Assembly (NCBI GenBank): GCA_964578585.1
Contig: CAZODM010000004.1
Location: 1-56,191 of the forward strand
Length of the DNA stretch: 56,191 bases
Source of the DNA: an uncultured Desulfobacterales bacterium
GTDB taxonomy: Bacteria > Desulfobacterota > Dissulfuribacteria > Dissulfuribacterales > JAMONC01
Direction: 5' to 3'
Below are positions 35,615 through 45,549 of the stretch, piece by piece. Made by a program: the position numbers and the translations under genes. Position 1 is the stretch's first letter. Every line of letters begins with the position of its first letter. The notes under the pieces were generated by a model that was given only the letters and a program-made list of their open reading frames with translations, made no database searches and was not told the origin of the DNA.

Positions 35615-36720
35615 TCAGTAGTTGTCAATCAAGATGTTGCCTAAAAGAGTAGTAAATTAAGCAGTCATAGCTACAGCATTTTAGGGTTTGATGAGGTAAG
35701 ATTAAGATGTACTGCCTCAATCAGTAACCAATGTCTGGTTTTTCCTGCCCAGCGTTTTGGATGTTTAGCTCTGGCATAGTTATAGGTTCGTTGCCTTTTG
35801 CATAATATATTAATATCTTTACCTCTATGTTGTTGTTCAGGAGTGAGGAATCTAATAGCACTATGTCTATATTGATAATTATACTAATTAATGAAATCTA
35901 ATGTCCAGTCTCATGCATATTCCAGGGAATCAAAATGTCCAGGATAGCCAGGAAAATATTTATTTTAAAAAAGGATTCACAAAAGGGATTGTTATCACCA
36001 ACATGAGCTCTGGAGAATAAAGGTGTTATACTCACTCTCTGCATAGTAGCTAGCACTAGGTCAAAATGGAGCACCAGATTGTTGTGAGAAATCGTTTTTC
36101 AAGATATAGTAACGTCTTAGAAGTTGTAATGCCAATATATCACTTTGAGTCTCATAAACTTCAAAGCCAACAATTTTACGACTAAAGATAAACATATAAA
36201 GATAGTAAAATTGTCCACGAACAGTTGTAGCAAGTAAGTAATATCCCATGACTATACCTGATTGGACGCTGTAGCAGTAAAATGCCTGGGTTTAGAATGG
36301 GTTCCGGGTCTGGTAGGAGTTCTGTTAGTAAATTGATTGAACCATTTCAATACACTATAGAAGAACTTTTTTCTTTTTATCAAGAGATTTGGAAGATGGA
36401 TTATCAATATTGTTTAAACAAGCCTGTTTCTAGGTTTCAAGCATATGAAAATAACCACCTTTATTTCTACAAAATTCAGAGATCTAAACTTCAGACATGG
36501 AAGCAGTAGCAAAAAGATATCCAGTTTTTCCTGGGAAGAAAATTTGTGTTGTTTCATAGTGTCTACTTGAGGCAAAAGTTGAGATTTCCATAAAGGGTAG
36601 AGTAAGCGATATTGTTCATTTTAGCAATCTCAGTCAGGGAGTAAAAGCCATCAAGGATTTGTTTACAAACACTTTGTTTAAATGTTAACTGCTTTTTATC
36701 CTTTTGTTTATTTTATCAGA
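35615..36720 (-). pseudogene. Decayed IS3-family insertion sequence (orfA and orfB fragments)
   Basis: Minus-strand fragments: SLTEIAKMNNIAYSTLY (HTH), SEV*ISEFCRNKG (orfA), YYLYMFIFSRKIVGFEV, DNNPFCESFFK, RHSAIRFLTPEQQHRG, ARAKHPKRWAGKTRHW (orfB). Many stops and frameshifts; boundaries approximate. Confidence 0.8.
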
Positions 36721-36826
36721 ATATGGTCTATTGATTTAGTAGTTTTAAAATTCTTATTCTTCATTAAAAAAGCATTTGCATTTATTATAATCTTTCCAAA
36801 ATAGTCTAAAAATCCTAATTCAATAC

Positions 36827-37663
36827 TCAGATTATCTTTTTATTTTCTAATATAGAAACAGGATCTACTAAATGATAAGAAAACCAAGACTGCCAATTTT
36901 GTGCACCTAAGGCTATTGCCAGTAGTTCTGTGAAATGAAAAGTTGGTATCTTTTCCTTAAGAGTGCATCTAATCTCAAGGTTTAACTGACACATTGCACA
37001 TGCAGTTACTAAACACTCTGCCCCACTTTCTATTGCAGTACCAATAATTTGATTCACCGCTTCTATTGTAGCAGGAGGTTTGGCAGCAGACAAAAATGTA
37101 CCACAACACTTAGTAAGGTTGGGCCACAAAACTGTCTGTGCACCAAAGGATTCCATTAATCTCTCAATTAGCCCCCGGTAGCAATGATAAAAACTTACAA
37201 GCGGTGGTCGAGAAAGCATGCAACCATAATAAGGTGCGACCTTTAAACCTTTAAGTTCTCTTTTTGCCCTTGATTGTAAAAACTTTGGATCCATCTCTGC
37301 TAATATCTCTAAAAAATGCATTACAGGCGCATTGGGATCAATAGGTCTTTGCCATCTGTTTTCTAAGACAAATCTTCGATGAGGATCAACCTTGACCATC
37401 TGTTGTGATTGGTGGAAATTGTGAAGACAATTTGGGCACATAACCATAAGTATTTCATCTGGTGGTAAAAGTGATAGATTCCTTAAAGATAGATCTAGAG
37501 CAATCCTTCTTTCAATACTATGGGCAGAGGTAGAACCACAACAGTTCCAGTCTGGTATATCTATAAGCTCTAAATCTAAAAATTTGGTTACTTCCATTAG
37601 AGAACGATTACATTCTTTTGCAGTAGTAGCAAGTGAACATCCAGGATAGTAATATAGTCTCAT
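36827..37663 (-). CDS. hdrB: Heterodisulfide reductase subunit B-like (two CCG domains)
   Basis: YYPGCSL, WNCCG, CPNC; YYGCML, KCCG, CAMC. Confidence 0.88.
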   Translation of the reverse strand: MRLYYYPGCSLATTAKECNRSLMEVTKFLDLELIDIPDWNCCGSTSAHSIERRIALDLSLRNLSLLPPDEILMVMCPNCLHNFHQSQQMVKVDPHRRFVLENRWQRPIDPNAPVMHFLEILAEMDPKFLQSRAKRELKGLKVAPYYGCMLSRPPLVSFYHCYRGLIERLMESFGAQTVLWPNLTKCCGTFLSAAKPPATIEAVNQIIGTAIESGAECLVTACAMCQLNLEIRCTLKEKIPTFHFTELLAIALGAQNWQSWFSYHLVDPVSILENKKII

Positions 37664-37667
37664 ACTC

Positions 37668-38243
37668 TTAAAGCTCCCATCTTCTAGTAAATATCTCTTT
37701 TATTTCTTTATTGTTTTTCACCTTAGAGGGACTAAGATCAAGCTTTCTTCTCGATAGCATTTTAAGTCCTAGATTAAAATCCTCAAACCACTTATGAGTT
37801 CTAGTCTTATAATCCAACATTATTTCAAGTTTGTGGGTTCTACCATGATTCTCTATGGAATTCATAACAGAACGATGAAATTCTAAGATTGTTGGTTCTG
37901 GAATGTTTCTTTTTTCTTCTATAGCAATGCTTCTTAGAGTATCCATTAGAGAAACAATATCTATAGCCTGCGGACATTGGTTTGAACAGGTATGACAACC
38001 AACACAAAGCCAAATTGTAGAGGAAGAAAGTACCTCATCTCTTAGATCATATTGGATAAGTCTAATGAGTCTGTTTGGAGGATATTCCATAGAAGTTGCA
38101 AATGGACATACACTTGTACATCCTTGACACTGAATACAACGCATTACCTCAATTCCTGATAGCTTCTCAATCTCCTTTGCAAAACTAAAGTTTATATCCT
38201 TTTTCTTTATGTTTAAACTTAAAGTACTTACTTGATCCTTCAT
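37668..38243 (-). CDS. hdrC: Heterodisulfide reductase subunit C-like (2x[4Fe-4S])
   Basis: CIQCQGCTSVCP and IWLCVGCHTCSNQCP; directly upstream of hdrB. Confidence 0.88.
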   Translation of the reverse strand: MKDQVSTLSLNIKKKDINFSFAKEIEKLSGIEVMRCIQCQGCTSVCPFATSMEYPPNRLIRLIQYDLRDEVLSSSTIWLCVGCHTCSNQCPQAIDIVSLMDTLRSIAIEEKRNIPEPTILEFHRSVMNSIENHGRTHKLEIMLDYKTRTHKWFEDFNLGLKMLSRRKLDLSPSKVKNNKEIKEIFTRRWEL

Positions 38244-38316
38244 TTCTCAACTCTTTCTCAGTTAGTTGGTTAAAAACTAAAAAATGTTTAACTCCAACTT
38301 ATTAAATCTTTAACAA

Positions 38317-38344
38317 GTATCGGATATGTTCACAAAAGCCTAAA
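38317..38344 (-). promoter_or_regulatory. Putative sigma28 promoter for hdrCB
   Basis: Minus strand TTTAG-N15-TCCGATAC, about 75 nt upstream of hdrC. Confidence 0.45.
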
Positions 38345-38357
38345 GCTATTTTAGTGA

Positions 38358-39674
38358 TCAAAACTGCTCCTTCCATCTTTTTGGAAAAGCAAATATAATC
38401 ATAGTTCCACCTTCTTTTCTGTCTTCAAATAAAAGTCTACCTTGATGCTCAATAAGTATCTGACGAACTACACTAAGTCCAAGTCCTTTTGTAGTTGGGG
38501 TTTTACCCTCTAAAATTATTTCTCTTATCTCTTTAGGTAATCCTGGACCCCTATCACCTACTATTACCCTGGGGCCTTCTTCATTTAATTCTACTCTTAT
38601 TAGTACTTCCTTTCCTTCATCAGAAACATCTAGAGCATTTCTAAGCACATGCAATAGAGCTATCTTTAATATTTTTTTATTCGCCTTTATAATTATAGGT
38701 TCTTTTGAAAGCTCTAACTTAACTTTTATTCCTTTTTTAGCCTCAAGCCTAGGTAAAAACTCTTCTACCACTTCCTTTACCAGTTGATTTAAATCCTGCT
38801 TTGTAAAAAATTGAACATTAAGCCTTGCAACATTTTCAAAGTTTCTAACAATCTCTTCAAGTTTTTTAGCTTCATTAAAAATCGCCTTTATCTTTACCTT
38901 TGTAGACTCATCTACCTTTGCCTTTTTTAAAAGTGCTCTAGAAAGCCCTCCTATAGCTGTAGCAGGATTTCTAATCTTATCTGCTACCTTAAGAGCCATT
39001 TCAGCCAAAGTTCTCTCTTGTGCAAGTGCTTCAATATCTCTAGATAAACTTAAAAGTTCCTTATTCATTCTCTCAAGTCTACGATTCTGTCGAGCCTTTT
39101 CCTTTAATAATCTAAGGACTTCCTCATGTTTTATCCTAAGATTTTCAATATATGCATCTTCATCTTTTGGAAATATTTCATCCCTAATCTCTTTTTCTCG
39201 TCTCTGTAGATCTTCCCAAGAAATCCTCTCACTCCACTTTATACCAACCACCTTAAGAGGAGTTCCGTTATAGCCACCTAATACCTCCATATAATCAAAT
39301 ATCTTAGAAAGGCCCAAAAAAGGATGTAGCTCTTTTAAGTCCTTAAGAGAAAGTACACATAGATTACCGCCTTCTTTTTCTTGTTTATAGCAAGGGCTAT
39401 TCCCTTCAACACTAATCTCAATCCCAGCTCTGCCTTTATGTGAAGATACAAAATAAAATGAAATTTTCCCTCCATTTGATAGTTTGACTAATGCCCTTGC
39501 AAGCTCTGAGGCAGAGGTTGAAACTTCAATTACCTTTAACTTTCTGAAATAACTTACTTGGGCAAGCATCTTTGCCTTAAGACGCACCTTTGGTATATCT
39601 GAATCTTTACTAACTAACAGCGTAAAGATATGAAGTCTATCCTTAACTATATCTTTTGTAGTTAAAGTCTCCAC
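38358..39674 (-). CDS. RsbT-like N-terminal domain fused to a histidine-kinase-like module lacking the phospho-His
   Basis: N-terminal DIPKVR...STSASELAR (degenerate RsbT fold), coiled coil, H-box reading VADKIRNP, HATPase boxes RNA, DRGPG, GLGL. Confidence 0.8.
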   Translation of the reverse strand: METLTTKDIVKDRLHIFTLLVSKDSDIPKVRLKAKMLAQVSYFRKLKVIEVSTSASELARALVKLSNGGKISFYFVSSHKGRAGIEISVEGNSPCYKQEKEGGNLCVLSLKDLKELHPFLGLSKIFDYMEVLGGYNGTPLKVVGIKWSERISWEDLQRREKEIRDEIFPKDEDAYIENLRIKHEEVLRLLKEKARQNRRLERMNKELLSLSRDIEALAQERTLAEMALKVADKIRNPATAIGGLSRALLKKAKVDESTKVKIKAIFNEAKKLEEIVRNFENVARLNVQFFTKQDLNQLVKEVVEEFLPRLEAKKGIKVKLELSKEPIIIKANKKILKIALLHVLRNALDVSDEGKEVLIRVELNEEGPRVIVGDRGPGLPKEIREIILEGKTPTTKGLGLSVVRQILIEHQGRLLFEDRKEGGTMIIFAFPKRWKEQF

Positions 39675-40735
39675 TTGATCACCAAAATAGCCGCATCATC
39701 CTTGATATTTAAGTGTCTAAAAAGCAATTGGGTCCAGATTAGTGTAGATATATCCTTTAACATATCTGAATTCTCAAATCTTGGAATCCTACCAACTCCA
39801 TCAGTATAAAGAACAGCAAATACACTTTGGTTCTTTGATAGATCAATTGGTTCTTTGAATCTAAAAAAATCAACAGGATGAGAAAATTCATATAATTTAT
39901 CATCTAATCCTAAGGTTAACCTTAAAGACCCCTTAGCCTGTATATGTAATCTCCTTGACTTATGATCTAATTGTAACATTATCATTGCTAAGCCCTGGGT
40001 ATCACTTAAAGAAAACTCAAGGCTTTCTAATATATGTTTAATAGGCATCTGTGCTGGTATCATATTTAGCATCTTTATAGCTTGGCAAACTGCCTCTGCT
40101 GCACCATTTCCACGACCAGAACCATCCATTAAAACAAATCTGGTAAAAAATGGATTACTCACAACATGTACTCCATCTCCACATACACTGCTTCCCTGCA
40201 TTGGCTCTAATAAAGATGAAAACTCTACTTCATCATTCATAAGGGGTAAATGAGCATCCTCATCCCAAATCTGACTCACCAATATAGTGTTCCAATCAAT
40301 ATCACTAACATGAGGACAAGATTTATTAATATCACTTTTAGAACATATAGCTACACGATTTGACAACCTGTAAATAGCCCCAAGACCAGTACCAAGGGTT
40401 TCTGTAGCACTTACTCCATCTAACATAGCCCTTTTTATGGATGATATACCAGGACCTTTATCAAAACTAGAGATAGACAGAAAAGGGATGTGATTCAAAA
40501 AAGATAGATTAATCTTTAATAGTCCTCCTTGTTTGGCATGTTTCACAAGGTTTGTTCCAATCTCACTAACAACAATGGAGACTTGAGCACATCGCCTTTG
40601 GCTAAAACCAGCCTGTTGTGCTATGTTAAGAGCTATGCGTCTTGAGATAGCTACATCAGCTTGTGTAGTAATAAAAATCTGTTCAGATATGGGGCTATGT
40701 CCTCTTCTATGTGTTTCTATACAAGACCTATTCAC
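39662..40735 (-). CDS. RsbT-type Ser/Thr kinase fused to SpoIIE/RsbX-type PP2C phosphatase
   Basis: SEIGTNLVKHA, DKGPGI, LGTGLG; then CGDG, DGSGRG, YTDGV, DDAAIL. Confidence 0.82.
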   Translation of the reverse strand: MNRSCIETHRRGHSPISEQIFITTQADVAISRRIALNIAQQAGFSQRRCAQVSIVVSEIGTNLVKHAKQGGLLKINLSFLNHIPFLSISSFDKGPGISSIKRAMLDGVSATETLGTGLGAIYRLSNRVAICSKSDINKSCPHVSDIDWNTILVSQIWDEDAHLPLMNDEVEFSSLLEPMQGSSVCGDGVHVVSNPFFTRFVLMDGSGRGNGAAEAVCQAIKMLNMIPAQMPIKHILESLEFSLSDTQGLAMIMLQLDHKSRRLHIQAKGSLRLTLGLDDKLYEFSHPVDFFRFKEPIDLSKNQSVFAVLYTDGVGRIPRFENSDMLKDISTLIWTQLLFRHLNIKDDAAILVIKWRL

Positions 40736-41091
40736 ATCAATCTTTCCAAAGCGTGATCTACATCTATAGCAAAATCCACCCCGGAAATCTTTATACCAAA
40801 TTCTAAAAGGGTGATTATGGTGGGAGCTTTGAGTCCACTTATAACTGCCTTAGCCTTTAGCAGGGAGGCAATCGATGCAATATTAGAAAGTTTCGATGCA
40901 AGATACGAATCAACAACATCTATATTAGATAAATCAACTATTATTCCTTTTGCACTGCTTCGCACTATTTCTTTAGATAAACAATCTAGTAAAGTATTTA
41001 TATCAGTGTCGTCTATCTCTTCACTGATATGCACCAAAAGTATTGAACCAATTGGTGAGATAGAGAATTTAGAATCTCTTTTCGGCTCCAT
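40732..41091 (-). CDS. rsbS: Stressosome STAS antagonist RsbS
   Basis: 119-aa STAS, GIIVDLSNIDVVDSYLA (phospho-Ser motif). Confidence 0.85.
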   Translation of the reverse strand: MEPKRDSKFSISPIGSILLVHISEEIDDTDINTLLDCLSKEIVRSSAKGIIVDLSNIDVVDSYLASKLSNIASIASLLKAKAVISGLKAPTIITLLEFGIKISGVDFAIDVDHALERLM

Positions 41092-41961
41092 TTATCTCTT
41101 AACTAATTTCTTTATAGTATCTTCTGAAGAGCTATATTTAATAAACTCAGAAAGTGCCATGTGTAAGGCATCACTCATTCTTCCTTGAACAACTATATTG
41201 CTCATATCCACTCCAATTTGAGCCATTGTACGTGCTATATGGGGACTAATACCTGTAAGTATAGCCCTACTTCCCATCAGTTTTACTGCATCTACTGTTT
41301 GTAGTATGTGATTTGCCACCTCTTCATCAACAGTAGGAACCCCTGTAATATCAATTATTACAAATGGTGATCTTGTTCTCTCTATAGCTTCAAGGAGTCT
41401 TTCAGTAGCAAGTTTTGCTCTATGACTATCTAAAGTACCTACCAAAGGCAGGGCTAAAACTCCATCCCATACCTCTATGACAGGAGTAGAAAGCTCAAGT
41501 ATCTCTTCTTGAAGATGCCTTATGTCTTCCTCTCTCTTTTTTAAGAGTTCTTCTTGTTGCTTTACGATTATTCGTTCCTTTTCAAGACGTTCACTTATAT
41601 CAATAAAGTGTTCTACACAACCTATAGTCTTACCTTCAAAATTTTTAAGTGGACGAGCTGCATACTCTATAGGAATTTCCTTTCCATCTTTATACATTAC
41701 TGAGAGTCCTCTTATAGTGGAATTCGACTCCACAGCCCTTCTACAAGTACACTCTTCAGTATTACACATAGGAGTCTTAAATATCTCCCAACACTTTCGA
41801 TCAAAACACTCTCCAGGACTCTTCCCTACCATCTCTGCAGCGGCCTTATTGACCATTAATATATTGTGTTCTTTATCAATAACAAAAATTCCAGATGGAA
41901 CAGCATTTATAACTTGATCCAAAAAGGGATCTTGATCAAAATCAATAGCGATCTTACTCAT
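41092..41961 (-). CDS. rsbR: Stressosome sensor RsbR (PAS + STAS)
   Basis: Cys-rich PAS ending FIDISER; ELSTPVI, PLVGTLDS, IDITGV, TGISP STAS motifs. Confidence 0.88.
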   Translation of the reverse strand: MSKIAIDFDQDPFLDQVINAVPSGIFVIDKEHNILMVNKAAAEMVGKSPGECFDRKCWEIFKTPMCNTEECTCRRAVESNSTIRGLSVMYKDGKEIPIEYAARPLKNFEGKTIGCVEHFIDISERLEKERIIVKQQEELLKKREEDIRHLQEEILELSTPVIEVWDGVLALPLVGTLDSHRAKLATERLLEAIERTRSPFVIIDITGVPTVDEEVANHILQTVDAVKLMGSRAILTGISPHIARTMAQIGVDMSNIVVQGRMSDALHMALSEFIKYSSSEDTIKKLVKR

Positions 41962-42122
41962 GAATAGATCCTTTTGTTAAAAATGATACAATCTTATAAT
42001 TTAAGAATGCACTAGAATCTACACTAGGGTCAAGCAAAAAATCCCTGCTTGGGTTTAAAATTAAAAATGAAGGGCAAAACAGATAAGCAATAAGATAAAT
42101 TAAAATTAACTACACTATAAAA

Positions 42123-42350
42123 TTAAATAGCACATTGTTTATTAATAAATCTTTTATTTTGAGATCTTATAAGTGCCTGATTAAAAGCAATTTGAATAGG
42201 ATCTGCCTTTTTAAAGAATCTACATTTTATAACTGGCAAATTTATAATAGATGCAGTCTTACAAGAGGCTCTATGTCTACAACTTATACATATAGAGGAA
42301 CTTGTAAACGTAAAATCTAATACTATATCCTTAACTGTAGGTTTTATCAT
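42123..42350 (-). CDS. Small Cys-rich hypothetical protein (putative metal-binding)
   Basis: Strong RBS AGAGGAGAGGAG; C-x2-C-x5-C-x12-C pattern. Confidence 0.55.
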   Translation of the reverse strand: MIKPTVKDIVLDFTFTSSSICISCRHRASCKTASIINLPVIKCRFFKKADPIQIAFNQALIRSQNKRFINKQCAI

Positions 42351-42363
42351 GCTCCTCTCCTCT

Positions 42364-42389
42364 AAAGTGTAGATTTTTGCCTACATTTT
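42364..42389. promoter_or_regulatory. Inverted repeat (operator or hairpin) between pilS and the small ORF
   Basis: AAAG-TGTAG-N8-CTACA-TTTT. Confidence 0.4.
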
Positions 42390-42419
42390 TTAGCTTTAAA
42401 TTTTAACCAAAGCTAAGTT

Positions 42420-44192
42420 TCATCCTCTTATTCCTACATCTTTTATATTATTTGCAATAGATATGCCCTTATTTATTTTTCGGAAAGATATTGGATCAAT
42501 CTTAACAGGTTCCTCTATTTCTTCTTTATCAAGTTTATAGGGTTTATAAGGTAGTTTTATAATAAAAGTTGTACCCTTGCCTAATTCTGATTTTACCTGA
42601 ATATCTCCACCATGAGCATTTATCAATCTATGTACAACAGAAAGGCCTAATCCTGTACCATCTGCCCTTGTTGTAAAAAAGGGATCAAAGATATGTGGTA
42701 TATCCTTTGGATCTATCCCCTTGCCCGTATCTTTTATAATTATTTCTACAAAGTTGTCTCGCTTATGTGCATGAATACTGATTTCACCTCCTTGTTGAGA
42801 TAAGGCTTGTCTTGCATTTAATACTAAATTCAATATTACCTGCCTAAATTGGTCTGGATCCATTACTACATTTAGATCCTCACTTATATCTAAATTAAAC
42901 TTACAAGGCGGGAGCCCCTTTCTCTGGGATATAAGTTCAATGATTGTCTTTATCTCTTTTAATATAGCAACGGGTTTACCTGCCCCTTTTTCTGGTCTAG
43001 CATAAAGCAAAAACGTCTCTGTTAGCCTGTTTAATCGCTCACTTTCTCTAGTTATAATCTTAATAAGTCTTTCACCTTCTGGTTTTATAAGATCTGCTTC
43101 TGCCAAAAACTGAGCTGCACCACAAAGAGAAGCCAAGGGATTTCTAATTTCATGAGCAAGTCCTGCTGCCATCTCCCCTAGTGCTGCAAGCTTATCCATG
43201 CGTTGAAGTCTCTCTTCTCTAGCCTTAATCTCTGTTATGTCTTGAAATATAAGTCCAAAGCCAATACTATGGCCTTCTTCATCCGTAAGAGGGAAAATAG
43301 AAATACCTAAAAATTTCTCCCTACCTGTTTTATCTTTTAAGATTAATTCATTTCTATTCATGTTATTATCCTGATTAATAGGAGTTACAAGTAACTTGTA
43401 TGCCTCTGGCCATATATCTTTTAAGGGTTTTGCATAAAATAGCCCAATATCAATATCTAATATCTCTGAAGCAGCTTGATTAAAGAATGTAATCCTTAAC
43501 TCATTATCTACAGTGATAAGACCAGATCTAATACTCCTTGCTAAGTGACGCTGTATTTGCTCCATTCTTCTAAGGTCTACCTGCGCCTTACTAAGCCTTG
43601 ACTGAATAAGCTTAAGCCTTTGAGCAAGAGTTACACCAAGGGCAGCTGTTATGTTAAAAGCAGCCATGTTTAAAAAAAAGGTAAACATACTACTGTTTGA
43701 ATTAATATGAGGCCAAAGACAAAGAAGAGCGAATGCTATGGTACTTAAAACAGCAGATACTGTACCGCCAGTTCTCCCCATTAATAAAGAGGCGCTTACT
43801 ATTATGAGTGGATACAAAAAAGTAAAAGGGCTTCTTGATTCTCCCGTCCAATAAACAGCAAGTGTTACAAGTAGCACATCGATTATGATCTGAGACCAAA
43901 TTAAAATAGAAGTAGCCCTACCCCACTTTGCCCAAATGGCATATATAGCAGAAAGCAAAAAAGAAAGTCCTAATAAGAGACTTAATCTTATAGTTGCAGG
44001 ATTTGTTGAATTAGAAAAACGGGCTCCTACATAGGTTACAACCAAAAGTAAAAGTAAGATTATAACCCTTCCTAGGGTTAGCCAATTTAAAAGCCTAAGT
44101 CTTTGTCCTTTAGAGTCTATGTTTTGCAAGTCTATACCTAAAAGACCTAAAATTAATCCCCAAAAGTTTTGCTGCCTCTGTCTTAACACCAC
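42420..44192 (-). CDS. pilS: PilS-like membrane sensor histidine kinase (multi-TM, PAS, HisKA, HATPase)
   Basis: GESRSPFTFLYPL membrane motif, PAS, AHEIRNPLAS, DPFFTT, GTGLGL. True start is probably near 44129, at the end of pilR. Confidence 0.8.
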   Translation of the reverse strand: MVLRQRQQNFWGLILGLLGIDLQNIDSKGQRLRLLNWLTLGRVIILLLLLVVTYVGARFSNSTNPATIRLSLLLGLSFLLSAIYAIWAKWGRATSILIWSQIIIDVLLVTLAVYWTGESRSPFTFLYPLIIVSASLLMGRTGGTVSAVLSTIAFALLCLWPHINSNSSMFTFFLNMAAFNITAALGVTLAQRLKLIQSRLSKAQVDLRRMEQIQRHLARSIRSGLITVDNELRITFFNQAASEILDIDIGLFYAKPLKDIWPEAYKLLVTPINQDNNMNRNELILKDKTGREKFLGISIFPLTDEEGHSIGFGLIFQDITEIKAREERLQRMDKLAALGEMAAGLAHEIRNPLASLCGAAQFLAEADLIKPEGERLIKIITRESERLNRLTETFLLYARPEKGAGKPVAILKEIKTIIELISQRKGLPPCKFNLDISEDLNVVMDPDQFRQVILNLVLNARQALSQQGGEISIHAHKRDNFVEIIIKDTGKGIDPKDIPHIFDPFFTTRADGTGLGLSVVHRLINAHGGDIQVKSELGKGTTFIIKLPYKPYKLDKEEIEEPVKIDPISFRKINKGISIANNIKDVGIRG

Positions 44193-45549
44193 CTGTACGT
44201 TCTAGTGCCTGCTTTAAAAATCTTCTTTCAATGGAGTCCAAAAAGGCATCTAGATCAATTCCTTCTGCAGGTAACTCAAAGGGATTTGTTTCTTTTTCTT
44301 GTTGTTTATTATTTTGTTTAGCCTTATACTGAGCAAGAGAAAGACTCTCTGGCAATATTAAATTTGATGTAGAAAGTGCAACACTTCTTTCTATGATATT
44401 TTCAAGCTCTCTAACATTCCCAGGAAATGGATATTCCATAAGGGCTTTCATTGCATAACTTGAAATCCCCTGTAGAGACTTCCCTTGTTCTTTAGAATAC
44501 TTATCTAAAAAATACTGAACTAATACAGGAATATCTTCCTTTCTCTCCCTAAGCGGTGGCATATGAATATTGATTACATTCAATCTATAGTAGAGATCCT
44601 CTCTAAATCTGCCTTCCATCACTTCTTTCTCAAGATCTCTATTGGTAGCGGAGATTATCCTTACATCTACCTTTATCTCCTTAGTACTCCCCAATGGTGT
44701 AAATGCCCTATTTTGTACAACCCTTAATAGTTTAACCTGAAGCGTGGGCGGAAGCTCTCCTATCTCATCTAAAAATATTGTTCCATAATGGGCTAATGCA
44801 AAAAGCCCTTTTTTCTCACTAACCGCTCCTGTAAATGCACCTTTTGCATGACCAAAAAGCTCACTTTCTAAAAGATTTTCTGGGATTCCACCACAATTTA
44901 CTACTACAAAAGGCTTATCCTTGCGAGGACTAAGATCATGTATAGCCCTTGCTACAAGCTCTTTACCTGTTCCGCTTTCACCAGTTATAAGAACATTTGA
45001 GTTACTCTGTGCTACACGAGGAATAAGTTGAAAGACCTTTAACATAGAGGGACTTTTAGCTATCATCCCTCCTAACCTATAAACCTTCTCACCTTGAGAA
45101 GTCCCAAAACTCTGAGGCTTTGATGAGACCAATAAAGCCTGCCTTACAACCTTTCTTAGTTCATCTAGATTAAATGGCTTTGTAATATAGTCCCAAGCTC
45201 CCTCCTTCATTGCAGAAACAGCAGTCTCCATAGAGGCAAAGGCTGTTATTAAAATTACTGGTAAGGAGGGATACTCTGCCTTTATATGTCTTAATAAAGA
45301 AACACCATCCATACCAGGAAGGCGCACATCACTTAGGACCAAATCTATAGACTCTTCAGCCATTACTTGAATAGCTTCCTCTGCTGAAGCAGCAAGAAAG
45401 ACACGGTAGCCCTCTCTTTTAAAAAAGATCTCTAAAAATTCTCTTAAACTAGTATCATCATCTACAACTAATACACTAGTAGTATCTTCCTGTTGTGCTT
45501 TATTGAGCTCGTTTTTATCAAAGATTAATTCTGCAATATCCATAACCAA
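44110..45549 (-). CDS. pilR: Sigma54-dependent response regulator, PilR-like
   Basis: REC; GESGTGKE; GAFTGA; FREDLYYRL; C-terminal HTH FRSFRYRLAK typical of PilR. Confidence 0.85.
   Translation of the reverse strand: MVMDIAELIFDKNELNKAQQEDTTSVLVVDDDTSLREFLEIFFKREGYRVFLAASAEEAIQVMAEESIDLVLSDVRLPGMDGVSLLRHIKAEYPSLPVILITAFASMETAVSAMKEGAWDYITKPFNLDELRKVVRQALLVSSKPQSFGTSQGEKVYRLGGMIAKSPSMLKVFQLIPRVAQSNSNVLITGESGTGKELVARAIHDLSPRKDKPFVVVNCGGIPENLLESELFGHAKGAFTGAVSEKKGLFALAHYGTIFLDEIGELPPTLQVKLLRVVQNRAFTPLGSTKEIKVDVRIISATNRDLEKEVMEGRFREDLYYRLNVINIHMPPLRERKEDIPVLVQYFLDKYSKEQGKSLQGISSYAMKALMEYPFPGNVRELENIIERSVALSTSNLILPESLSLAQYKAKQNNKQQEKETNPFELPAEGIDLDAFLDSIERRFLKQALERTGGVKTEAAKLLGINFRSFRYRLAKHRL

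Follow-up and report, generated by a model that had tools for sequence, protein, structure and literature searches.

The window analysed here is a stretch of 56,191 nucleotides from an uncultured Desulfobacterales bacterium (contig CAZODM010000004.1, forward strand). It contains a row of four tightly packed genes on the minus strand (Table 1), the first three of which encode an RsbR-like sensor, RsbS and a fusion of an RsbT-type kinase with a PP2C phosphatase. Judged by sequence, this is a stressosome module that has its RsbR, its RsbS, its RsbT-type kinase and its PP2C feedback phosphatase. An earlier note on this DNA had proposed an RsbRST module; the RsbT-type kinase is there as proposed, with the difference that it is fused to the phosphatase. 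The last gene of the row starts with GTG. Its product, which we call the output protein, consists of an N-terminal domain followed by the dimerization and histidine phosphotransfer (DHp) and the catalytic, ATP-binding (CA) domains of a histidine kinase, in which aspartate replaces the phospho-accepting histidine. Modules with this replacement are called Asp-type below.

Table 1. Features at the stressosome locus and beside it (positions in the window; aa, amino acids of the encoded protein; nt, nucleotides)
Feature	Position	Strand	Remarks
4Fe-4S dicluster protein and CCG-domain protein	36827..38243	-	heterodisulfide-reductase-like pair
Output protein, Asp-type histidine-kinase look-alike, 438 aa	38358..39674	-	pseudo-RsbW domain, long helix, DHp (Asp232), CA
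CA domain, aa 290-432	38379..38807	-	N-box N346, G1 D374xGxG and G2 GLGL present
DHp helical hairpin, about aa 205-287	38814..39062	-	preceded by a continuous helix from aa 172
H-box ADKIRNP, aa 231-237	38964..38984	-	Asp232 for phospho-His, Lys233 for Glu, Asn236 kept
N-terminal domain, aa 1-165	39180..39674	-	SpoIIAB/RsbW/RsbT-like GHKL fold without ATP motifs; predicted RsbS dock
RsbT/RsbW-type kinase (about aa 25-130) and PP2C (about aa 175-357) fusion, 357 aa	39662..40735	-	13-nt overlap with the next gene
Linker of the fusion protein	about 40298..40354	-	consensus ICSGxxGxxPCP
RsbS, single STAS domain	40732..41091	-	Pfam STAS 31.8 bits; Asp61 followed by Ser62
RsbR-like sensor	41092..41961	-	Pfam PAS_4 62.5 bits and STAS 55.5 bits; cysteine-rich PAS, DITG motif
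Open reading frame of 75 codons	42123..42350	-	in the 459-nt gap between PilS and rsbR
PilS-like kinase (AHEIRNP) and NtrC-type sigma-54 activator	42420..45549	-	from open reading frames and Pfam; directly upstream of the operon

The output protein matched the Pfam families HisKA (PF00512; residues 225-285, 29.2 bits against a cut-off of 26.9) and HATPase_c (residues 334-432, 55.2 bits). Its best solved relative was ThkA of Thermotoga (3a0r, E = 8.6e-25). In the phmmer alignment the query stretch 'EMALKVADKIRNPATAIGG' lies on 'EMTARVAHEIRNPITIIGG' of ThkA, which places D232 at the phospho-accepting histidine and K233 at the catalytic glutamate. The H-box is encoded by gca gat aag att aga aat cct, with the Asp codon GAT at 38979-38981; PilS in the same window has AHEIRNP. 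Both the phospho-accepting histidine of HisKA-type kinases and its acidic neighbour are absent, and so, as read from its sequence, the protein lacks the residue that defines a histidine kinase. The AlphaFold2 model of the whole protein had a pLDDT (predicted local distance difference test) of 86. DSSP assigned helices to residues 172-251 and 256-287 of the model, and Foldseek matched it to DHp-CA structures of histidine kinases. The ATP boxes are LHVLRNA (N-box, at residue 341), DRGPG (G1, at 374) and KGLGLS (G2, at 396). In an alignment of 31 sequences most relatives have a CA lid that is longer by three residues, and the phenylalanines of the F-box are gone. DivL (4q20) and RetS (6dk7) appeared among the sequence matches. 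The earlier note had described His-to-Asp and Glu-to-Lys exchanges, retained ATP boxes with a shortened F-box and lid, a degenerate RsbT-like N-terminus and no response regulator or sigma factor behind the gene. This description was correct on every testable point: the ThkA alignment gave the exchanges, the motif positions and the alignment of relatives gave the boxes and the lid, the N-domain has a SpoIIAB/RsbW fold without ATP motifs, and the next genes encode a 4Fe-4S protein and a CCG-domain protein.

The codons GAT (Asp) and CAT (His) differ by a single base, and the replacement might be a sequencing error or a private loss-of-function allele in an ordinary histidine kinase. We give this virtually no chance and rejected it, since the relatives, the counts over loci and the independent runs all retain the aspartate. 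Four further runs (X3-X6), from four studies, gave contigs with the same codon at 38979-38981; within the gene they differ only at 38456, 38470, 38556, 39048 and 39402, so the base calls that the earlier note wanted verified hold. The adjoining glutamate is changed too, and the aspartate persists in relatives with as little as 34% identity and across three collections. A word-indexed search yielded 29 full-length relatives with 37-78% identity from Thermodesulfobacteriota records and metagenomes; where named, they are annotated as 'sensor histidine kinase' or 'hypothetical protein'. Asp stands at the His site in 30 of the 31 aligned close relatives, the exception being P0026 with His-Glu. When one genome per species was scanned, 97 relatives were confirmed and 80 of them kept; 79 of these 80 have Asp and one (L077) has His-Glu, in a scan biased towards Asp by one of its three search patterns, which contained 'AD'. 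A metagenome scan with eight Asp-type sequences from outside the stressosome gave 143 confirmed relatives; all 80 that were kept have Asp, one of the two patterns having held 'VAD'. Finally, 1.84 billion representatives of 50% clusters were searched with a DHp-CA profile, which found 4,839 proteins at E up to 1e-30. The best 150 of these comprise 71 with Asp, 60 with His, one with Asn and 18 in which the site is unaligned, and their Asp-type members are 215 to 1,399 residues long.

We built a FastTree tree of 143 modules, 84 of them Asp and 59 His, from the representatives, only 15 of the loci and the window, with the two H-box columns removed; only rows with at least 200 filled columns and with Asp or His at the site were used. 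On this tree, whose support values are local only and whose root is arbitrary, the Asp state costs 3 changes, against a mean of 45 with shuffled labels. The main clade holds 80 Asp-type rows and three His-Glu proteins (L077, P0084 and P0026), which are sister to, or at the base of, the stressosome-linked Asp group. All three are full-length and have the same pseudo-RsbW N-domain, and no stressosome genes lie near the gene in L077 (6328-7566). Their His-Glu state may be a reversion or may be ancestral. A second small Asp clade, with the Asp-Gly and Asp-Cys rows P0141, P0142, P0147 and P0149, sits inside the His-type rows; its nearest row is P0194 (His-Val). Very similar fragments differ at the site, with Asp-Gly in P0159 and P0160 and His-Gly in P0162 and P0176. 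This second clade points to an independent His/Asp switch. The gene product is, by alignment, a member of a large conserved HisKA-derived family in which His has become Asp and the neighbouring Glu a non-acidic residue. The earlier note had asked whether the exchange is conserved and had allowed for homologues that all carry His; they do not, which makes the protein a conserved, non-canonical output of a module of the RsbR-RsbS-RsbT type, as the note had suggested.

Asp-type modules are not confined to stressosomes, since they stand behind at least ten other input architectures. These inputs are REC, REC-REC and REC-PAS, one to three PAS domains, HAMP, dCache with or without HAMP, MASE3, a Tll0287-like domain (in Nitrospirota), NIT-HAMP-PAS and ETR1_N-PAS. 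In P0065, P0068, P0069 and L151 the module follows a complete hybrid kinase, in the order dCache-HAMP-PAS-HisKA-HATPase-REC-REC-Asp module, and in P0064 it is itself followed by PAS-HisKA-HATPase. Most Asp-type proteins of these other architectures have no Pfam HisKA match whatsoever. When the neighbours of the 80 metagenome loci were clustered, no gene group occurred in more than 9 loci, the largest groups being a secretin, an M48 peptidase and TPR proteins, and a conserved partner gene for the Asp-type genes outside the stressosome was rejected on this count.

To describe the H-box across the family, we tabulated 167 distinct Asp-type modules, dropping rows with a gap at the site, and 62 His-type relatives. 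The position after the aspartate (+1) is Arg in 84 modules, Lys in 41, Gln in 30, Gly in 5, Asn and Ser in 3 each and Cys in 1. It is never acidic, whereas 52 of the 62 His-type relatives have an acidic residue there. Arg follows at +3 in 163 of the 167 and Pro at +5 in all. At +4, Asn (162) or Thr (5) is found without exception, as it is in 62/62 His-type relatives. According to the available text of Willett and Kirby 2012 (PMC3510030), only phosphatase activity depends on the Thr or Asn at +4 of HisKA proteins, and only kinase activity on the acidic residue beside the histidine. The ATP site shows a second kind of loss. The N-box Asn and the G1 motif DxGxG are both intact in 123 of the Asp-type modules, and one or both are lost in the other 44, which are mostly stressosome-linked proteins of Desulfobulbia-like records. 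All 44 retain D..RNP, within D..RNP..GG, and the conserved function would thus not always depend on the module's own ATP site. Since both kinase determinants are lost, in part of the family together with the ATP site, and the phosphatase determinant is kept in 167 of 167, the DHp-CA part may act as a phosphatase or a phosphate sink. The window genome also encodes a kinase with His-Gln in its H-box (SHQIRNP; G000:C47:2253-3389, minus strand), which does not have the acidic residue needed for kinase activity.

The reading we favour, at a probability of about 45%, is that the output protein is a phosphatase without kinase activity that is gated by the stressosome and forms one arm of a split two-component pathway. 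The earlier note had listed a pseudokinase scaffold, a phosphatase-only protein, a partner acting in trans and Asp-based chemistry as possible outputs, and it is the phosphatase-only protein that the evidence favours. Asp232 and Asn236 together form a D-x-x-x-N motif that may be likened to the DxxxQ motif which CheZ and NarX (HisKA_3) employ, as described in the accessible part of PMC3510030: an acidic residue and an amide stand four apart on one helix. The likeness is one of spacing only, since the amide is Asn and not Gln, and the Asp of NarX adjoins a retained histidine.

The conserved aspartate could itself be the site of chemistry. The CA domain would then move the gamma-phosphate of ATP to Asp232, and the acyl phosphate would be passed on or hydrolysed as a timer. 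This is consistent with the strict invariance of the aspartate, with the 123 modules that keep N-box and G1 and with the canonical F and G2 boxes of many modules outside the stressosome clade. Moreover, a carboxylate nucleophile would need no general-base Glu, and the Arg or Lys at +1 of most modules (125/167) could offset its charge. We nevertheless consider the mechanism highly unlikely, because the 44 modules that have lost ATP-binding residues keep the aspartate and because Gly, Asn, Ser and Cys also occur at +1. We know of no precedent for the CA domain of a histidine kinase phosphorylating a carboxylate, and a search of the literature, with subscription journals outside its coverage, turned up none. 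It would be a long shot to call Asp232 a true phospho-acceptor and the protein an 'aspartate-kinase transmitter', a third kind of phosphotransfer module beside histidine kinases and receivers. If that were true, such a transmitter would serve stressosome, receiver, Cache, MASE3, NIT and haem-sensor inputs in several phyla.

For the phosphatase reading, the most direct hint comes from the genes beside some relatives. In eight loci (L022, L023, L028, L034, L039, L044, L045 and L059) a PAS-HisKA-HATPase gene directly follows the Asp-type gene, overlapping it by 8 nucleotides in L022 and lying 23-50 nucleotides downstream in most others. The encoded kinases have about 340-380 amino acids (Pfam domains determined for L022). 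Their H-box reads T-H-D-L-K-[A/V]-P, with the histidine and the acidic residue present and Ala or Val in place of the phosphatase Asn/Thr. Among loci with at least 1.2 kb of downstream flank, a limit that excludes nine, such a neighbour was observed in 8 of 21 loci with an ATP-degenerate Asp-type protein, compared with none of 31 with an intact one. By their motifs, one gene of an L022-type pair looks kinase-only and the other phosphatase-only, and we take these complementary pairs as a hint to the function of the Asp-type protein.

Another possibility is that the Asp-type DHp binds a true kinase and switches its kinase/phosphatase state with no catalysis of its own. RetS of Pseudomonas and DivL of Caulobacter, which has Tyr at the His site, likewise have the body of a kinase but do not signal through autophosphorylation of a histidine. 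The available text of PMC12189002 describes them as acting on another two-component protein by regulating another kinase, and an Asp-type protein might by analogy do the same. They differ from it in the substituting residue and in being confined to narrow lineages, compared with a broad Asp-type family with many inputs, and the input here is a pseudo-RsbW domain. The adjoining, partly overlapping PAS kinase genes of the eight loci speak for such regulation, as do the fusion of the module to a PAS kinase in P0064, the PilS-like kinases beside the operon in the window, L002, L012 and L040, and the loss of ATP motifs in 44/167 modules. However, it leaves unexplained the invariant Asp and +4 Asn/Thr (167/167) alongside a lost Glu, and also why the partner kinases have lost specifically the phosphatase residue. 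Most Asp-type genes, moreover, have no kinase gene beside them. We therefore regard it as rather unlikely.

The phosphatase reading further assigns a task to the N-domain of the output protein. The model of this domain alone had a pLDDT of 91, and Foldseek matched it best to SpoIIAB (1l0o, 1th8) and RsbW (6m36), with E values of 8e-6 to 1.6e-4 and a probability of 1.0. A profile search of the Protein Data Bank with the N-domain gave no solved relative at E up to 10; the anti-sigma kinases came from the fold search alone. PF13581 is part of the precomputed annotation of several relatives. The consensus of 44 sequences has neither the N-box Asn nor DxGxG, and H15, D26, R31, K33, K35, S56, E57 and R60 are invariant in it. 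The 1:1 complex of the N-domain with RsbS was predicted with an ipSAE interface score of 0.78, whereas the highest-scoring of three controls reached 0.01; the mark applied is reached by 116 of 157 solved complexes and by 2 of 215 mismatched pairs, a calibration that is rough here because our own alignments were used. Runs share at least 96% of the contacts, and the partner protein has a pLDDT of at least 87. In the predicted interface, residues 24-35, 45-60 and 117-125 of the N-domain face residues 24-29, 58-64 and 90-99 of RsbS, with R31, E57 and R60, all invariant, in contact with D61 and S62. The N-domain is thus predicted to dock on the phospho-serine face of RsbS. One protein, P0086, joins an RsbU_N domain (26.2 bits, cut-off 25.5) to an Asp-type module, and by its domain content is a second, independent tie between this module and RsbT signalling.

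With RsbS held in this way and its Ser62 placed at the predicted interface, the CA domain might phosphorylate another protein on serine or threonine, possibly RsbS or RsbR. RsbT, SpoIIAB and the mitochondrial kinases PDK and BCKDK are models for this, as GHKL kinases that phosphorylate serine and have helical bundles exist. The ATP site of the window copy is intact, as such a kinase would require. The operon, on the other hand, already has an intact RsbT-type kinase, 44 of the 167 modules have lost their ATP motifs, and the invariant D..RNP motif would be left unexplained. We find this very improbable.

If the output protein is instead a phosphatase arm, its mode of action might be as follows. 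The ATP-dead RsbW/RsbT-like N-domain would dock on the phospho-serine face of RsbS as modelled. The fused kinase and phosphatase would set the phosphorylation of RsbS Ser62, and the output protein would be held or released in a manner analogous to the capture of RsbT in Bacillus. The DHp-CA part would not autophosphorylate on histidine; with D-x-x-x-N kept, it would act on a phosphorylated receiver under the control of stress, either as a phosphatase or as a phosphate sink. A target response regulator, which we infer to exist, belongs to this picture. The fusions of the Asp-type module to receivers and kinases (REC-D, REC-PAS-D, kinase-REC-REC-D and D-then-PAS-kinase, where D is the module) speak for it.

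Several observations weigh against this mechanism. No receiver gene is conserved beside the Asp-type gene in the 80 genome loci or the 80 metagenome loci. The ATP site is complete in 123/167 modules, and a pure phosphatase is not obviously in need of one. His-less mutants that retain phosphatase activity carry various residues at the His site, and the strict invariance of the aspartate is explained only by the analogy to DxxxQ. The eight complementary pairs form one clade and amount to about one evolutionary event. All 18 parsed H-boxes of the window genome (H-x-x-x-x-P) have N, T or S at +4, and the kinase half of P0064 retains Asn there. Finally, the predicted interface is of the classical anti-sigma/anti-anti-sigma type, and its high score may come from likeness to the solved SpoIIAB-SpoIIAA and RsbW-RsbV complexes.

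Among the proteins of the operon, RsbR is the most conserved (59-73% identity). Its PAS domain has six conserved cysteines, of which C52, C66 and C115 are invariant in 23 sequences and C57, C71 and C73 are kept in at least 90%. This cluster (residues 52-115) suggests a metal, iron-sulfur or redox input. In the same sequences T206 of the STAS DITG motif is invariant. In RsbS, Asp61 is invariant in 35 sequences and is followed by Ser or Thr in the relatives shown; Ser62 of the window protein is a putative phosphorylation site. The kinase half of the fusion protein matches HATPase_c_2 (33.9 bits) and has an intact ATP site: the 31 aligned sequences all have E58, N62, D92, G94 and G117, and G96 and G115 are kept in at least 90%. 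Its PP2C half retains all four aspartate motifs (D187, D204, D312-G313 and D346-D347, each at 90% or more of the 31). The SpoIIE profile scored 15.2 bits in the window fusion, below its cut-off, and 29-31 bits, above it, in L002 and L007. In the consensus motif of the linker the serine is invariant, and both cysteines are the majority residues.

Across loci the conserved order is RsbR, RsbS, in some cases RsbT, the fusion of RsbT-like kinase and PP2C, and the Asp-type gene. When neighbours were clustered, the fusion gene immediately preceded the Asp-type gene in 50 of 61 full-length loci, RsbR was placed in 44 loci, RsbS in 34 and a stand-alone RsbT (142-150 amino acids) in 22, figures that are undercounts owing to short contigs and to antisense reading-frame artefacts of a simple gene caller; by tblastn, RsbR and RsbS are present in nearly all loci with enough flank. 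The lineage of the window has no separate RsbT, and RsbS abuts the fusion gene. L031 and L077 are without the stressosome module, and L049, L056 and L057 without the fusion gene. The window genome comprises 2.42 Mb and is 99.98% complete by marker genes. A search of it returned as STAS proteins only the two of the operon, no further SpoIIE-type phosphatase and, apart from the CA domains of kinases, no further RsbW-type kinase over the cut-off. The operon is therefore the only partner-switching set of the organism, and either the Asp-type or the fusion protein must carry its output.

The PilS-like kinase and NtrC-type regulator upstream of the operon are a possible pathway partner. The pair also lies upstream of RsbR in L002, L012 and L040, from three different parts of the tree, which makes four loci in all, with no other link between the pair and the operon. 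By eye, the DHp specificity residues of the window PilS and the Asp-type protein differ at +7, +8, +12 and +15, which lends no support to a pairing. The sigma-54 promoter pattern TGGCAC-N5-TTGCW with at most two mismatches gave 23 matches (18.5 expected), none of them in 41962-42419. A sigma-54 link from the NtrC-type activator to the operon was rejected, since no candidate promoter lies between PilS and RsbR. Scans of 36500-42600 for sigma-70 promoters and terminators stayed at the shuffle level.

The stressosomes of Bacillus, Listeria and Vibrio consist of RsbR, RsbS and RsbT with RsbX, and their outputs are RsbU or the two-component system VvD1/VvD2. The operon resembles them in its sensor-STAS RsbR, its RsbS with a predicted phospho-serine, its RsbT-type kinase and its PP2C phosphatase. 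It differs in that kinase and phosphatase are one protein and in that the output has an ATP-dead RsbT/RsbW-like domain instead of RsbU_N and Asp for His; no sigma factor follows, and the genome has no RsbV/RsbW. Two-component-type outputs downstream of RSTX modules have been described in Vibrio and in surveys, as far as the available text of PMC9237108 and PMC10014275 goes. The N-domain shares with SpoIIAB/RsbW bound to SpoIIAA/RsbV its fold and a predicted interface centred on the STAS phospho-serine; it differs from them in having neither N-box Asn nor DxGxG, no detectable sequence similarity and a fusion to DHp-CA. The bifunctional HisKA kinases HK853, EnvZ and CrdS, as treated in the accessible part of PMC3510030, have in common with Asp-type proteins the DHp-CA fold, the x-x-R-N-P framework and the Asn/Thr at +4. 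Unlike them, Asp-type proteins have no phospho-His and no acidic residue at +1, which would leave no kinase or phosphotransfer half-reaction; their Asp is fixed, and their phosphatase activity is presumed.

Pseudokinases without the histidine and two-component outputs of stressosomes are already known, and the Asp-type protein could be described in these terms as a HisKA-derived pseudokinase or phosphatase. New here are the range of architectures, the loss of both kinase residues with the phosphatase residue strictly retained, the subset with degenerate ATP sites, the predicted docking on RsbS and the neighbouring kinases without the phosphatase residue. The family of Asp-for-His transmitters is apparently undescribed: the full-text literature, with most subscription journals and supplements outside it, gave no paper on such a family or on this stressosome output. 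For bacteria that have no SigB, it is an open question how the stressosome passes on its signal. In the available text of the Vibrio study (PMC9237108), contact of RsbT with the downstream kinase could not be shown. The operon offers a testable wiring, as its output carries a dead copy of the stressosome kinase as a predicted docking domain. Beyond the stressosome, a large family of at least 71 clusters at 50% identity is hidden under the annotation 'sensor histidine kinase'. If its members are dedicated phosphatases, Thermodesulfobacteriota, Nitrospirota and other groups would hold many natural split kinase/phosphatase pairs, the L022-type pairs would be a natural experiment on the Willett-Kirby rule, and genome annotations and network models would be wrong wherever they treat these proteins as kinases.

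Other genes near the operon were also observed. The 75-codon reading frame between PilS and rsbR, shorter than the listed open reading frames, encodes a cysteine- and lysine-rich product and has a ribosome-binding-like stretch, GGAGAGGAG. The heterodisulfide-reductase-like pair, separated from the Asp-type gene by 114 nucleotides, is common only to the window and its closest relative L001 (89-90% identity). In 18 loci (e.g. L004:8284-11363) the next gene after the Asp-type gene, on the same strand and often overlapping it, encodes a large protein of about 530-890 amino acids, which had no Pfam match at E up to 1e-5. L031 has this gene and that of a DUF1318 protein as a pair without stressosome genes, and the DUF1318 protein follows the large protein in 17 of the 18 loci.

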